Virus genome (UHGV): UHGV-0327679
Length of the DNA: 35,439 nucleotides
Origin: a virus
Strand: one strand, 5' to 3'
The notes under the pieces are model-generated. The model was not told the origin of the DNA. It saw only the letters and a list, made by a program, of their open reading frames with translations, and ran no database searches. This document shows positions 24,865-29,814 of the stretch, one piece after another. Each line of letters starts with the position of its first letter. The first letter of the stretch is position 1. A program made the translations under genes and the position numbers.

Positions 24865-26241
24865 TCATACGTCAGCCCCTTGTGCATATCGTCTGCCACG
24901 CGCAGCAGGTGCATTTGATGCTGTGCAAATCTGTCTGGCTTCATCCTGGTCACATGCAACAAAGTGTCCGTTGCAGAACCGCTGGTAAACCGTACCAAGT
25001 GAGCCAAAACGGTTTTTCGTCACAATGATTTCAGCAAATGGCGCGGCGCTACTGTTCTCGTCATATACAGCTTCCCGATAGAGCATGATGATTGAGTCTG
25101 CGTCCTGTTCAATGCTTCCTGAATCACGCAAATCTGCGTTTGTCGGGCGTTTGTTTGGTCGCTTCTCAACATCGCGCGAAAGCTGACTCAGGGAGATAAC
25201 AGGCGTTTTCAGGTCTTTCGCCATCGCCTTCAGGCTTCCGGAGATGTGAGCAATTGCGAGGTCGTTGCGATCTGCTTTCGGCTTCTCAATCAGGCCAAGA
25301 TAATCCACCATGATGAGTGACAGGTTTGGATTTTCCTGTTTGTGCCGTTCTGCGATTGAGCGTATTTCTTCGACCGATAACCGCGAGGCATCGACTACCC
25401 ATACATCCAAATCTGCAAGCTGACTCATGCCGTTAGCAACGCGCGCCCAGCCTTCGTCATCCATCGATGCAGGATTTCGCAGCACACTAACCGACATCCT
25501 CCCGGCGTTGGCAATACTTCGCTCTGCAATCTGCAATGCGCTCATTTCCATTGAGAAAATCAACACTCCGCGCCGGACGTCAGAACCAGGAATAACGCGG
25601 CTTGCAACGCCTTCGGCAATCTTCAGCGCCAGTTCGGTTTTACCCATACCGGGACGAGCGGCGATAATCACCAGGTCTTCTGCGTTCATCCCTCCGGTGA
25701 TGGCGTCAAGTTCGTCGATTCCGGTCTTCAGGGTATCTGACTCTTCTCCGTTCCTCAGACGCCTGTCAAGCGTGTCAGTGTAGTCAGTGATGATTTCCCC
25801 TAACCGTACCGGTTTAACCTCGTCACGGGGCTTTCTGATGGCTGAAAGACGCTTTACAAGTTCATCCATCGCCTGACTCGATGCGTCGATGGTTCCGCTC
25901 TGAATTGGTTCACGCATTTCATCCATGATTTCCAGCACCAGACGGCGGTGATAGTTATCCGCGACCATTCCGGCATATCCCTTCAGGTTTGCGGCACTCG
26001 GGCAGTTTTTGCTGGTCATCAGGATTGACGTGAAATGCTCCTCTCCGCACGCCTCGGCAACCATCAGCGCGTCGATTAAATTTCTGTTTCGCGCCTGCTT
26101 GCGGATAACCTCGAAGGCTTTCCGGTAGAGCGGAATTGAAAACGCTTCCGGCTCCAGCGTTGCCAGAACGTCGCTGGCGGTTGGAGTTAATCCACCAATC
26201 AGCAGGCCACCGATAACGCTCGCTTCGATATCCTGTCTCAT
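24865..26241 (-). CDS. Replicative DNA helicase (DnaB-like, P22 gene 12 type)
   Basis: 458 aa; Walker A GMGKT; DnaB C-terminal domain motifs. Confidence 0.85.
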
Positions 26242-27185
26242 GCAATCCCCCTGTCTGCAAACTTCCCTTCCCGTACTCCCGTTAACGAATCTTCCCTCAA
26301 CAGGTAATCAAAATCAGCCGTCCAGCCCGTGTCGTTGTCTCCGAAGTAAAACGGCTTGGCCTGATGCACAAACGCCCTGACATACGCTCTGAAACCGTCC
26401 ACGTTTGGCGTTTTCAGTTGCGGGATGATTTTCTTCAGGCGGCGTTTGCGTTTCTCGTTGACTGCAACAGCATGTGGAAGTCTGTCACCGACTTCGGTGT
26501 TGTAGGCGTTCAGGAAGGATTCGTAGTCGATTCGTTCTGCCTTGCGACGTTCAGGTTTAACCTGCCCATCGCCGCCCCCATTGGGGGGTAGGGGGGTATT
26601 ATTTATATTCTTGTTAATACCTTCTTGTTCATGATGTGCGGTTGTTTGTGCGGCTTCATGTGCGCTTTCATGTGCGGAATGTGCGCTGAAAGCTGCGCCA
26701 TTACTGGCTTCGTCATGTGCGGCATCATGTGCGGTTGTTTGTGCGGCATCATGTGCGGGTAAATTGTCCATTTTTTGAGCATATTCATGGTAATTTGTGA
26801 TGGTGATCACACGACCTTTTTGCTTCTCTCCATCAATGGAGATCATCCCTTCTTTCACAAAAACCTGAAGCATCCGCTCAACCTGATCACGGCTTGCTGG
26901 CTTGCCATGTCTGTCGCATAACTGAAGACCTAAATCAGCTGCTGTCACAACCAGTTGACCGGGTTGCAGATGCCATTCATGACCTTTGAAATTCGCTTTG
27001 TATGGCTTTCTGGCGGCATTCAGGAGAAGGTTTTCCCACAGGGTGCGAAGATAAACATCTTTCGCCCATGACTGTTTCAGAATGCTCCGGTACAACGGAA
27101 TGTAACCAGTTTTCTGGTTCTCCATCCTGTTGCTCCTGCGCTCGTGTGCGGCGCTGAAATCGTAGATTTTTGCTGTATTGCTCAT
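26238..27185 (-). CDS. O: Replication initiator O-like protein
   Basis: N-terminus [10 protein letters not shown] resembles lambda O (MTNTAKILNF); His/Ala repeat linker encoded by the iterons. Confidence 0.8.
26629..26759. repeat. Probable origin iterons: about 8 tandem copies of a roughly 12-bp unit (tcATGTGCGGc) inside the O gene
   Basis: Repeated CATGTGCGG read directly; adjacent G-rich then AT-rich stretch 26575-26625; same arrangement as ori-lambda within O. Confidence 0.6.
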
Positions 27186-27187
27186 AA

Positions 27188-27460
27188 CTACCTGCCTTGA
27201 CGAAAGACCTTAAGAACATCGTTAAACTGACTTACGGATATGTCTTCTTTGAGAAGCTTTTCCAGAAATGCGTTTGGAATGAACGTATATCCCTCCTCTT
27301 TTGGTAGAGACGGGAGCAACGCCATCGCCTCAGCCTTCAGAAGCTCAGTTCTGGCAACTTTCACAAAAGAGATTTGAGTTCTTTCATCAATGGAACGAAG
27401 GAAGCGCAAACGCTTAGCTTCTTTGTGTGTATCAGGTGGATTAAAGCCTTTGTTTCGCAT
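27188..27460 (-). CDS. Hypothetical 90-aa protein inserted between cII and O
   Basis: ATG 27460 with GAGG Shine-Dalgarno; lambda has no gene at this junction. Confidence 0.5.
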   Translation of the reverse strand: MRNKGFNPPDTHKEAKRLRFLRSIDERTQISFVKVARTELLKAEAMALLPSLPKEEGYTFIPNAFLEKLLKEDISVSQFNDVLKVFRQGR

Positions 27461-27535
27461 ATAATTACCTCGTTGGATGTTGTTAAAATTCCATTTGTAT
27501 TTGATCAGAACGCTCGGTTGCCGCCGGGCGTTTTT
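27460..27535 (+). ncRNA. oop: oop-like antisense RNA with its terminator
   Basis: 3' portion TTCAGAACGCTCGGTTGCCGCCGGGCGTTTTTTATT matches lambda oop and its terminator; 5' end uncertain. Confidence 0.5.
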
Positions 27536-27776
27536 TATTGGTGAGAATCGAAGCAACTTGTCGTGCCAATCGAGCCATGTCGTCGTCAACGACGCCCCAT
27601 TCAAGAACAGCAAGCAGCATTGAGAACTTTGGAATCCAGTCCCTCTTCCACCTGCTGATCTGCGACTTATCAACTCCCACAGCTTCCGCTGTCTTCTCAG
27701 TTCCAAGCATTGCGATTTTGTTAAGCAACGCACTCTCGATTCTTAGAGCCTCGTTGCGTTTGTTTGCACGAACCAT
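27483..27776 (-). CDS. cII: Transcriptional activator CII
   Basis: MVRANKRNEALRIESALLNKIAMLGTEKTAEAVGVDKSQISRWKRDWIPKF, near-identical to lambda CII; lambda-type Shine-Dalgarno TAAGGAAATACTTACAT. Confidence 0.9.
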   Translation of the reverse strand: MVRANKRNEALRIESALLNKIAMLGTEKTAEAVGVDKSQISRWKRDWIPKFSMLLAVLEWGVVDDDMARLARQVASILTNKKRPAATERSDQIQMEF

Positions 27777-27855
27777 ATGTAAGTATTTCCTTAGATAACA
27801 ATTGATTGAATGTATGCAAATAAATGCATACACCATAGGTGTGGTTTAATTTGAT

Positions 27856-27887
27856 GCCCTTTTTCAGGGCTGTGATGTGTAAGAGCG
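27856..27887 (-). promoter_or_regulatory. nutR (boxA CGCTCTTAC, boxB GCCCTGAAAAAGGGC)
   Basis: Minus strand reads CGCTCTTACACATCACAGCCCTGAAAAAGGGC, matching lambda nutR. Confidence 0.8.
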
Positions 27888-27895
27888 AGAATGTC

Positions 27896-28111
27896 TTAAG
27901 CGGCTTTGTGTTCCGGCGGGAACACGTCATCAAGACTGACTTTTGCGCCTAACTTGTTTAGGCACTCAACAAGAGCACGGCATGTTTTAAGGTCTGGGAA
28001 GCGACGACCAGATTCCCAATGTCCGATAGCTCCCTGTGTGCATCCAACTGCCTTAGCAAGTGTTGTTTGAGAGATATTCAGTGACTCTCGATATTTTCGT
28101 AGGTTGCTCAT
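27896..28111 (-). CDS. cro: Cro-like HTH repressor (not lambda Cro)
   Basis: 71 aa MSNLRKYRESLNISQTTLAKAVGCTQGAIGHWESGRRFPDL; GGAGG upstream; divergent from cI. Confidence 0.75.
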   Translation of the reverse strand: MSNLRKYRESLNISQTTLAKAVGCTQGAIGHWESGRRFPDLKTCRALVECLNKLGAKVSLDDVFPPEHKAA

Positions 28112-28223
28112 ATGCCCTCCATAGTAACCATGAAACAATAATACGATATGTACTTTTAGAATGCAAACAAAAAAATACATCTTGTGCATGGATGGTTTTA
28201 GTACAGAGCGTAATAATAATGGT
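28112..28223. promoter_or_regulatory. OR region with divergent PR/PRM; candidate operators at 28140-28154 and 28200-28214
   Basis: Related palindromes AATACGATATGTACT and AGTACAGAGCGTAAT; a third copy, AGTACAAATCGTACT, sits in PL. Confidence 0.45.
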
Positions 28224-28883
28224 ATGAAAATGAAATGGTATGAACTGGCTAGATCCAGAATGAAAGAGCTCGGCATAACTCAAGAGAGGTTAGCTGAAGA
28301 GCTTGGTATGACGCAGGGTGGAATTGGTCACTGGTTGCGCGGATCTCGTCATCCATCTCTTGACGAGATTGGTGTGGTGTTTAAATACCTTGGTATTGAT
28401 AACGTCTCATTCAACCACGACGGTACATTTTCACCTGTTGGCGAATACTCTCTGCCCCCGTTAAAAAAACAATATGAGTACCCTGTTTTTTCTCATGTTC
28501 AGGCCGGGATGTTCTCGCCTGAGCTTAGAACCTTTACCAAAGGTGATGCGGAGAGATGGGTCAGCACAACCAAAAAAGCCAGTGATTGTGCGTTCTGGCT
28601 TGAAGTTGAAGGTAATTCCATGACCGCGCCAACAGGATCCAAGCCAAGCTTTCCTGACGGGATGTTAATTCTCGTTGACCCTGAGCAGGCTGTTGAGCCA
28701 GGTGATTTCTGCATAGCCAGACTTGGTGGTGACGAGTTTACCTTCAAGAAACTGATCAGGGATAGCGGTCAGGTGTTCCTACAGCCACTAAACCCGCAAT
28801 ATCCAATGATTCCATGCAATGATAGCTGTTCCGTAGTAGGGAAAGTTATCGCCAGCCAGTGGCCTGAAGAGACATTTAGTTAA
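28224..28883 (+). CDS. cI: CI repressor, hybrid: novel N-terminal HTH domain fused to a lambda-type C-terminal LexA-like (S24) domain
   Basis: C-terminal [37 protein letters not shown]...[25 protein letters not shown] matches lambda CI; N-terminal [26 protein letters not shown] resembles the cro HTH; start 28224 or 28230. Confidence 0.8.
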
Positions 28884-28914
28884 CAGCCTCACAACTCTAA
28901 AATACACAACAATA

Positions 28915-28943
28915 ACCCGACCTTAGCGTCGGGTTTTCTTTTT
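28915..28943 (+). terminator. Terminator downstream of cI (no rexAB present)
   Basis: Stem CCCGAC/GTCGGG with a 6-nt loop, followed by TTTTCTTTTT. Confidence 0.6.
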
Positions 28944-29008
28944 CCAAAATATAAACCCATTAAATACAAAGCGTTATAAAAAACTAATTATATTTAGAAC
29001 ATTTTGTA

Positions 29009-29037
29009 TTGACTCAATAAAGTACAAATCGTACTAT
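29009..29037 (+). promoter_or_regulatory. PL promoter (-35 TTGACT, -10 TACTAT) with overlapping operator
   Basis: 17-nt spacer; palindrome AGTACAAATCGTACT at 29021-29035. Confidence 0.55.
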
Positions 29038-29077
29038 TTAGCCATCAGCAGGACGCACTAACCACCATGAAGGTGAG

Positions 29078-29106
29078 GCTCTTAAAAATTAAGCCCTGAA
29101 GAAGGG
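29078..29106 (+). promoter_or_regulatory. nutL (boxA GCTCTTAAA, boxB GCCCTGAAGAAGGGC)
   Basis: GGCTCTTAAAAATTAAGCCCTGAAGAAGGGC matches lambda nutL. Confidence 0.8.
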
Positions 29107-29290
29107 CGGCATTCAAAGCAGAAAGCTTTGGGGTGTGGTGAAGCTCAACGGCGAGCTAGGGAATAGTTTTGCGGTGAAGATTCTAGACAACTAACCGCAG
29201 GATGCGCGTAACCCAATCGGCAGCGCACCGATGGAAGCTGGTTCGACTCCAGCCACCACACCACCAAAGCTAACTGACAGGAGAATCCAG

Positions 29291-29617
29291 ATGGATGCAC
29301 AAACACGCCGCCGCGAACGTCGCGCAGAGAAACAGGCTCAATGGAAAGCAGCAAATCCCCTGTTGGTTGGGGTAAACGCAAAACCAGTTAACCGCCCTAT
29401 TCTCTCGCTGAATCGCAAACCGAAATCACGAGTAGAAAGCGCACTGAATCCGATAGACCTTACGGTGCTGGCTGAATACCACGAACAGATTGAAAGCAAC
29501 CTGCAACGTATTGAGCGCAAGAATCAGCGCACATGGTACAGCAAGCCACGCAGTGAAATGGGTGTGACTTGTGTTGGTCGCCAGAAAATGAAATTAGGCA
29601 GCAAACCACTTATTTGA
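29291..29617 (+). CDS. N: Antiterminator N
   Basis: MDAQTRRRERRAEKQAQWKAANPLLVGVNAKPVNRPILSLNRKPKSRVESALNPIDL, near-identical to lambda N. Confidence 0.9.
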   Translation: MDAQTRRRERRAEKQAQWKAANPLLVGVNAKPVNRPILSLNRKPKSRVESALNPIDLTVLAEYHEQIESNLQRIERKNQRTWYSKPRSEMGVTCVGRQKMKLGSKPLI

Positions 29618-29625
29618 GGTGATAT

Positions 29626-29814
29626 ATGGAACGTAAATTTGAAATTTGGTTGGATTCCGGCGCAAACATTCATTCTTGCAAAAAGACAGTTGTAACACTC
29701 GATGATCTTGGCTTATCCGAGAATGAGTGGAATGAAATGGATCAGGACGAAAAAGACGAAAACATGCGTGATGTAGCATTTGAAACGCTTGATTGGGGAT
29801 GGAAGGAAATTTAA
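29626..29814 (+). CDS. Hypothetical acidic 62-aa protein
   Basis: GAGGTGATAT Shine-Dalgarno before ATG; AT-rich; in the lambda ral/sieB position. Confidence 0.55.
   Translation: MERKFEIWLDSGANIHSCKKTVVTLDDLGLSENEWNEMDQDEKDENMRDVAFETLDWGWKEI

Follow-up and report, generated by a model that had tools for sequence, protein, structure and literature searches.

An immunity region of the VT2-Sakai type in a P22-like prophage of Escherichia coli

Background

A repressor combining the carboxy terminus of lambda CI with a unique amino terminus was described by Smith et al. in 2012 (PMC3430580) under the name CI2c; it is paired with cro4 and is carried by Stx2 II (Stx, Shiga toxin), YYZ-2008, 1717 and VT2-Sakai. 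The same domain pattern is attributed to Fattah et al. (2000) in the account relayed by PMC10742460. The operators of this immunity type are also known. The 17-mers OR1-3 and OL1-3 of VT2-Sakai are listed in Table S1 of PMC10742460, and OR1-3 and OL1-3 were predicted for Sakai-type PST1 phages by Yin et al. 2015 (PMC4587872). In the GenBank entry NC_004913.3, three 17-bp "putative operators" are annotated at OR, together with PR and PRM, and three more at OL. Lambda CI was applied to the VT2-Sakai operators in electrophoretic mobility shift assays (EMSA), and the binding was weak, with a micromolar apparent Kd (dissociation constant; PMC10742460). In Salmonella, the specificity of phage L is distinct from that of P22 (PMC8022706). 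Here we compare with these systems the region 27896-29037 of the viral genome UHGV-0327679 (35,439 nt; this whole stretch is called the window below). A preliminary description, made from the sequence alone, considered it a hybrid immunity region with a likely new operator specificity.

Results

Repressor and Cro

The region 27896-29037, with PL/OL, cI, PRM/OR/PR and cro, constitutes the primary immunity region of an E. coli prophage that is P22-like (Lederbergvirus-type), and it represents an already known immunity type, not a new operator specificity. With high confidence, its DNA-recognition module is assigned to the VT2-Sakai/Sp5 type ("cI2c/cro4"), recombined into a lambda-like early region and expected to act as a CI/Cro switch of the lambda style. 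By sequence similarity, the module is related to immC of the Salmonella phage L/ST64T. The gene order was read from the sequence and the list of open reading frames (ORFs); the orientation of the map is reversed relative to lambda. The two central genes are as follows.

27896-28111, minus strand: cro, 71 amino acids; Pfam HTH_3, E=1.4e-12; all-alpha, with a fold other than that of lambda Cro
28224-28883, plus strand: cI repressor, 219 amino acids; Pfam HTH_3 and Peptidase_S24; alternative start ATG at 28230

Homology with Stx-phage DNA spans exactly the interval bounded by the stop codons of cro and cI (27896-28883; blastn, 92.5% identity). Phages Louie, Dewey and 720R6 encode the same Cro (71/71); the identity is 98.6% (70/71, tblastn) in VT2-Sakai, Stx2 phage II, the Stx1-converting phage of O157:H7 Morioka V526, 1717, YYZ-2008 and the PA-series Stx2a phages, among others. 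The full-length cI coincides with the Stx1-phage cI in 208 of 219 positions, and the recognition helix (helix 3) is the same. In Louie and 720R6, 213-215 of the 217-219 cI residues are the same as in the window.

The cI protein contains an HTH_3 domain (residues 11-58) and a Peptidase_S24 domain (residues 87-209), both detected by Pfam. The N-terminal helix-turn-helix (HTH) domain is of the Sakai type: it is 91.6% identical (76/83) to the Stx-phage version and 95-96% identical to those of Louie and 683R2 (tblastn, overall range 91.6-96.4%). The seven N-domain substitutions relative to the Stx-phage cI are R22K in helix 2, D47S, E48D, V61I and three in the linker, with none in helix 3. The C-terminal S24 domain is of the lambda type (133/136); its Ala-Gly cleavage site and the context of the Ser/Lys dyad are intact in the alignment with lambda cI (PDB 3bdn/8gmu). 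The C-terminal domain of the Stx-phage cI matches that of the window in 132 of 136 positions and that of lambda in 135 of 136. Since the Stx-phage repressor already has a lambda-type C-terminal domain, the "hybrid" repressor is the standard form of the VT2-Sakai type.

As noted in the preliminary description, the N-terminal domain of cI and Cro differ from their lambda counterparts and resemble each other. They are paralogous (35% identity over 62 residues, E=7e-13), and their recognition helices are nearly the same (TQGAIGHWESG in Cro). The nearest solved structures for Cro are 28tn and the N-terminal domain of P22 c2.

The members of this immunity type are VT2-Sakai/Sp5, Stx2 phage II, the Stx1-converting phage of O157:H7 Morioka V526, 1717, YYZ-2008 and 2851. 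The module was found in 776 of 5426 complete E. coli genomes (14%), and one copy is 100% identical over 585 bp. Homoimmunity is expected between this prophage and the Sp5-type Stx phages as well as Louie, Dewey and 720R6; this bears on superinfection and on the acquisition of Stx phages by carriers. The practical value of the assignment lies in annotation.

Operators and promoters

The cro and cI genes are divergent, and the 112-bp gap between them holds OR1, OR2 and OR3, a tripartite operator over PR and PRM. A second tripartite operator, OL1-3 (28962-29036), overlaps PL and has nutL and N downstream. Candidate sites were scored with a matrix built solely from the six published VT2-Sakai sites and hence independent of the window. 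In the list below, each pair consists of the VT2-Sakai site and the window site, the latter given in the published orientation.

28138-28167, minus strand: predicted PR (promoter scan); -35 TTTGCA/TTGCAT, -10 TATTAT, OR1 in the spacer
28139-28155: OR1, TAATACGATATGTACTT, 18.3 bits; corresponds to the published VT2-Sa OR1 AAGTACATATTGTATTT on the opposite strand; pair AAGTACATATTGTATTT and AAGTACATATCGTATTA
28173-28189: OR2, AAATACATCTTGTGCAT, 11.1 bits, the weakest site; abuts the predicted -35 box of PRM; compare the published VT2-Sa OR2 ATGCACAATGTGTATTT; pair ATGCACAATGTGTATTT and ATGCACAAGATGTATTT
28189-28216, plus strand: predicted PRM; weak -35 TGGATG (28189-28194), -10 TAATAA (28211-28216)
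28199-28215: OR3, TAGTACAGAGCGTAATA, 15.2 bits; over the -10 region of PRM; differs from the published OR3 in one flanking base; pair TATTACGCTCTGTACTG and TATTACGCTCTGTACTA
28962-28978: OL3, AAATACAAAGCGTTATA, 15.2 bits; differs from the published VT2-Sa OL3 in one base; homologous site in NC_004913.3; pair TACAACGCTTTGTATTT and TATAACGCTTTGTATTT
28995-29011: OL2, TAGAACATTTTGTATTG, 16.3 bits; overlaps the -35 box of PL; pair CAATACAATTTGTTCTA and CAATACAAAATGTTCTA
29009-29037, plus strand: PL (promoter scan); -35 TTGACT, 17-bp spacer, -10 TACTAT
29020-29036: OL1, AAGTACAAATCGTACTA, 20.7 bits, the top site of the window; in the PL spacer; pair TAGTACGATATGTACTT and TAGTACGATTTGTACTT

The consensus of the six 17-bp sites is AAGTAC-N5-GTACTT. 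Each window operator differs from its VT2-Sakai counterpart in one or two bases, mostly at central positions that are not contacted or in the flanks, and the sites annotated in NC_004913.3, three at OR and three at OL, align with those of the window. PR has the same layout as PL, and the spacers of these promoters (17-18 bp, promoter scan) contain OR1 and OL1, respectively. A promoter homologous to PR is annotated in NC_004913.3, and PRM is homologous to the "putative maintenance promoter for CI" of the same entry; the remaining details of PRM are predicted from the sequence. Transcription from PRM would start near the cI ATG (28224), and the cI mRNA is possibly leaderless, as in lambda.

The intergenic regions and the motif are both AT-rich, and the score of OR2 is no better than that of two unrelated positions in the window, as might be expected if the palindromes were chance features of AT-rich promoter DNA. 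The probability of this is negligible. Among the 35,439 bases of the window, OL1, OR1, OL2, OL3 and OR3 are the five top-ranking sites, and OR2 is the eighth. A score of at least 15 bits is attained by five sites, compared with 0.07 per shuffled sequence, and all five occupy canonical OR and OL positions. The half-sites are conserved across phages of E. coli, Klebsiella and Salmonella, whereas the central five bases vary. The arrangement mirrors that of lambda, with OL1 and OR1 in promoter spacers. Finally, the matrix recovers the same motif and the same order and spacing of six sites in Louie, 720R6 and phage L, and in phage L the position of OR2 is conserved.

The preliminary description listed three palindromes AGTAC-N5-GTAYT at PR/PRM and PL. 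All three exist. Two are exact, at 28140-28154 in the PR spacer and at 29021-29035 in the PL spacer, but the third, at 28200-28214 at PRM, has one mismatch (GTAAT), and three weaker sites (OR2, OL2, OL3) had been missed, which makes six in total. When one mismatch is allowed, the window contains 11 strand matches to this pattern versus 1.8 expected, a number reached in none of 100 shuffles. A seventh candidate operator, AAATTCCATTTGTATTT at 27486-27502 (11.8 bits), lies at the stop codon (3' end) of cII, outside OR and OL, and was treated as a chance match; it is probably meaningless, because about 0.9 sites with that score are expected per shuffle.

Thus the window combines a near-identical Cro, the same cI recognition helix with a lambda-type C-terminal domain, and six corresponding operators of VT2-Sakai. 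One could still suppose that the cI N-terminal domain, Cro and the palindromes constitute a new, uncharacterised immunity specificity: the N-terminal domain is 25% identical to that of lambda cI, the lambda-operator matrix is empty in the region, 7 of 83 N-domain residues differ from the Stx-phage cI, and a literature search found no biochemistry of the cognate proteins. We consider this very improbable. Cro (98.6-100%) and helix 3 of cI (identical) are those of a long-known type; all six operators, with conserved half-sites, correspond to published or annotated VT2-Sakai sites; 14% of the complete E. coli genomes carry the module; and the hybrid domain structure had been reported in 2012 (PMC3430580) and, according to PMC10742460, by Fattah et al. 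in 2000. The preliminary description had itself stated that its proposal of a likely new operator specificity would fall if the cI/cro pair were that of a characterised immunity type. Both the pair and the six operators belong to the described VT2-Sakai type, and the proposal is abandoned.

Several points weigh against our assignment. Neither a footprint nor an EMSA of the cognate repressor or Cro on these operators came up in the literature search, whose scope excluded Fattah et al. 2000 and Serra-Moreno et al. 2008. The N-domain differences from the Stx-phage cI, in particular R22K in helix 2, may cause a subtle shift of affinity. OR2 is weak (11 bits), and its centre is 34 bp from that of OR1, as opposed to 24 bp for these sites in lambda, so that pairwise cooperativity of the lambda kind at OR is an assumption.

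Relation to lambda

Comparison with lambda DNA (blastn against J02459) yielded the following blocks.

27487-27887: 97.3% identity; cII and nutR
28473-28877: 93.8% identity; C-terminal domain of cI, from the YEYPVF motif on
28906-28941: 88.9% identity; terminator located after rexB in lambda
29043-29592: 84% identity; start of the PL transcript, nutL and N

The features that fall into the lambda-like early region, in addition to cI, are these.

27483-27776, minus strand: cII (ORF list; Pfam Phage_CII, E=5e-48); 95 of 97 amino acids as in lambda CII
27856-27887, minus strand: nutR; boxB GCCCTGAAAAAGGGC (27856-27870) and boxA CGCTCTTAC (27879-27887), both identical to lambda; within the block 27487-27887
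28914-28945, plus strand: intrinsic terminator 3' of cI (terminator scan); homologue of the lambda terminator downstream of rexB
29077-29107, plus strand: nutL; boxA GGCTCTTAA (differs from lambda in one base) and boxB GCCCTGAAGAAGGGC (as in lambda)
29291-29617, plus strand: N antiterminator (Pfam N36, E=2.9e-25); 97 of 107 amino acids as in lambda N

The DNA unlike lambda comprises 27888-28472 and 28942-29042, and homology picks up again around the start of the PL transcript (29043). The span 27896-29037 of the preliminary description is therefore accurate, as it matches these bounds almost exactly. The blastn blocks and the protein identities also bear out its view of cII (95/97), N (97/107), nutL, nutR and the C-terminal domain of cI (133/136) as lambda-like. 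By contrast, the N-terminal domain of cI has 21 of 83 residues in common with lambda cI and lacks the N-terminal arm, and Cro, which belongs to another fold class (HTH_3), is effectively unrelated to lambda Cro. The rexA and rexB genes are absent, as had been noted: the distance from the cI stop (28883) to the -35 box of PL (29009) is 125 bp, and the lambda alignment passes straight from the end of cI to the post-rexB terminator. The operators are unrelated to those of lambda. The lambda-operator matrix has no match in 27800-29100; its best matches in the window do not exceed 12.3 bits and are located elsewhere. Thus the N-terminal domain, Cro, the operators (the TATCACCGCCAGTGGTA family in lambda) and rexAB all set the region apart from imm-lambda.

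With lambda as the reference, the word "hybrid" holds: foreign cro, OR, cI N-terminal domain and OL are joined to lambda-like N, nut sites, cII and cI C-terminal domain. Shared with lambda are also the divergent cI and cro, the tripartite OR and OL with OR1 and OL1 in promoter spacers, the post-rex terminator and, possibly, the leaderless cI mRNA. The region is one more case of lambdoid mosaicism, in which the immunity cassette has been swapped at conserved junctions, namely the cro stop, the boundary between the cI domains and the PL transcript start.

The remainder of the window is a P22-like genome that resembles phiv205-1, Kapi1, CUS-3 and 720R6. Its portal, terminase, replication and lysis genes are all present, the replication genes encoding an O-like initiator and a DnaB-like helicase. 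This bears on the possibility that the module has decayed to a non-functional relic within a cryptic prophage, its palindromes no longer serving as operators. Inactive copies of this immunity type do exist, since the cI of VT2-Sakai has a premature stop (annotation; PMC3430580). In the window, however, cI, cro, cII and N are intact, together with the promoters, the terminator and the nut sites; the full P22-like genome surrounds them; and the plaque-forming isolates Louie and 720R6 have the same Cro (71/71) and almost the same cI (213-215 of 217-219). We consider decay of the module very improbable.

Operator spacing and the candidate switch

The module is most likely a bistable CI/Cro switch of the lambda style, by analogy with lambda. 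In the following model, repressor binding, the order of the sites, cooperativity and activation of PRM are predictions that rest on the sequence identities, the positions and conservation of the operators and the domain content given above. As in lambda, its homologue, dimers of cI bound to OR1 and OL1, in the spacers of PR and PL, and to OR2 and OL2 would shut off transcription of cro and N. The centre of OR2 lies about 43 bp upstream of the start of cI, and the site ends at the -35 box of PRM, so cI bound there would be placed to activate this weak promoter. At OR3, over the -10 region, cI would repress its own synthesis from PRM. Self-cleavage of cI stimulated by RecA at the conserved Ala-Gly site of the S24 domain would lead to prophage induction. 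Cro, whose recognition helix is almost the same as that of cI, is predicted to bind the same sites and to turn PRM off.

The centre-to-centre distances in the window are 34 bp for OR1-OR2, 26 bp for OR2-OR3, 25 bp for OL1-OL2 and 33 bp for OL2-OL3. They are conserved in the family (32-34, 26, 25 and 30-33 bp, respectively) and differ from those of lambda (24, 23, 24 and 20 bp in the same order). This spacing coexists with a cI cooperativity domain that is about 98% identical to that of lambda. It is conceivable, although unlikely, that cooperative pairing does not follow lambda and involves either the close pairs OR2-OR3 and OL1-OL2 or a contact between OR1 and OR2 across three helical turns, and that in polylysogens the lambda-type C-terminal domain allows mixed oligomers with lambda-type repressors. 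If such oligomers form, they might underlie the cross-immunity between lambda and VT2-Sakai that is attributed to Fattah et al. 2000 in the part relayed by PMC10742460.

Comparison with other phages

The VT2-Sakai-type Stx phages share with the window Cro (70/71), cI (208/219), the operator half-sites and their order, and the layout of PR, PRM and PL. The spacing at OL is 25/33 bp in both, whereas at OR it is 32/26 bp in the Stx phages and 34/26 bp in the window. The flanking genes differ. In the Stx phages, cI and OL are separated by an HK97-like N and extra ORFs, and cII and O are HK022-like; in the window OL lies 79 bp past the cI stop and is followed by lambda nutL and N, and cII is that of lambda. 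The other differences are the seven substitutions in the cI N-terminal domain and linker and the one or two bases per operator.

In phage L/ST64T (immC, a classical specificity), Cro is 70% identical to that of the window (helix TQGAIGHYESG), and the N-terminal domain of ST64T c2 is about 52% identical. The operator motif (e.g. TAGTACGAAATGTATTA and CAATACAAAATGTACTT) and the OR spacing (34/26 bp) are the same as in the window. The differences are in the host genus, the flanks (P22-type gene 24 and c1) and the diverged proteins. P22 c2 and the 434 repressor and Cro belong to the same all-alpha five-helix HTH_3 fold class as the N-terminal domain of the repressor and Cro of the window, and in 434, too, repressor and Cro are paralogous in the DNA-binding domain. 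However, sequence similarity to P22 c2 and 434 is weak (E about 0.006-0.1), and their operator sequences are different.

The cI of VT2-Sakai (NC_000902.1; L004, 1401-2096) is split in the annotation into a "c1 repressor protein fragment" and a truncated cI. This is consistent with the premature stop known from the literature (PMC3430580), and the type phage thus has a defective repressor. Klebsiella phage phiKp_30 (LC768498.2; L008, 2240-2473) has Sakai-type OL-like and OR-like sites and a Cro that is 97% identical, with no cI between them. It resembles a derivative of a temperate P22-like phage that has lost cI and is presumably obligately lytic, and it could not be used for comparison of repressors, as no cI is present between OL and OR. 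The repressor of BAA2326 (O104:H4-type), the subject of the "hair-trigger" study by Chakraborty et al. 2018 (PMC5977221), was also considered; it is of a different type, with unrelated operators.

A tRNA-like RNA in the N leader

A more interesting lead than the immunity region itself was found in the leader of N, whose folding z-score is -5.1. The leader hairpin at 29124-29270 keeps the base stem of lambda (29124-29140 pairs with 29253-29270), and its interior is replaced by a 112-nt insert that is present in Louie and absent from lambda and 720R6. The insert and the adjoining stem may fold as follows.

29132-29262: tRNA-like RNA inside the N-leader hairpin; cloverleaf supported by covariation

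Homologues of the insert, at about 75% identity, occur in 92 phage records and 175 E. coli genomes, at unrelated positions. In HK75 (L010, 1501-1616) the homologue is flanked by tR' and the holin gene. In Seszw_1, a Skatevirus phage of Salmonella (L011, 1501-1611), it occupies the intergenic space next to the gene for the major tail protein and lies upstream of a tRNA-Ile gene, at a distance of about 115 bp. These two positions are "tRNA slots". In other contigs, homologues are found between the portal and terminase genes, and still others at the tip of stems resembling the N leader. The further records are L009 (1501-1612), L012-L104 and L106 (7276-7383). An exact-pattern scan found the element in 93 viral contigs, and a scan of genome contigs gave two records, both of sequence types already in the set.

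The 52 distinct sequences align to a cloverleaf of five helices. Its acceptor-like stem has 9 bp, one hairpin resembles a D-arm, the loop of the long arm comprises about 20 nt, an extra hairpin of 5 bp closes a 7-nt loop, and a canonical T-arm bears the loop UUCGAYU. In the alignment, 98.6% of the cells are paired, versus 28-49% when the partners are slid. Compensatory changes occur in 15 of 37 pairs, and none of 500 shuffles reaches the observed score. Two of the helices were fixed by the search pattern and thus give no evidence. The loop of the long arm contains a 6-nt palindrome kept by covariation in all 52 sequences (alignment columns 67-72; TCTAGA at 29182-29187 in the window). It occurs in the forms ACUAGU, UCUAGA, GCUAGC, UCGCGA and ACCGGU and is unable to pair inside one molecule. 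This suggests loop-loop (kissing) homodimerisation or, at the DNA level, a site for a dimeric protein.

ARAGORN found no tRNA or tmRNA in the window, and a search of 27400-29700 against Rfam (Rfam 15, E<=1) gave only a sub-threshold tmRNA-like match. Relatedness to YrlA (Y-RNA) was considered and set aside, as there was no Rfam match to YrlA; moreover, the ends of YrlA are presumably on the arm opposite to that of the tRNA-like insert. In lambda, cleavage of the N-leader hairpin by RNase III relieves the N-mediated repression of N translation. By analogy, and quite speculatively, a tRNA-like substrate at the tip of the hairpin could recruit tRNA-processing nucleases to cut the leader, as RNase III does. 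The element was not found in our literature searches and is apparently undescribed; it could be among the 10,006 unnamed candidates of PMC10690425.

Neighbouring genes

An ORF of 90 amino acids (27188-27460, minus strand) separates cII from the O-like gene, a position that is empty in lambda, and matches phrog_2519 (function unknown, E=1.7e-56). The same slot is occupied by an HNH endonuclease in Louie and by a different small ORF in 720R6. Since its contents differ between the three genomes, the position qualifies as a variable moron slot.

The O-like replication gene (26238-27185, minus strand) contains arrays of imperfect 12-bp repeats at 26647-26758, TGTGCGGCTTCA and TCATGTGCGGCA, with 2.6 and 3.8 copies. 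The repeats, which code for a His/Ala-rich linker in the O-like initiator, probably correspond to the iterons of ori.

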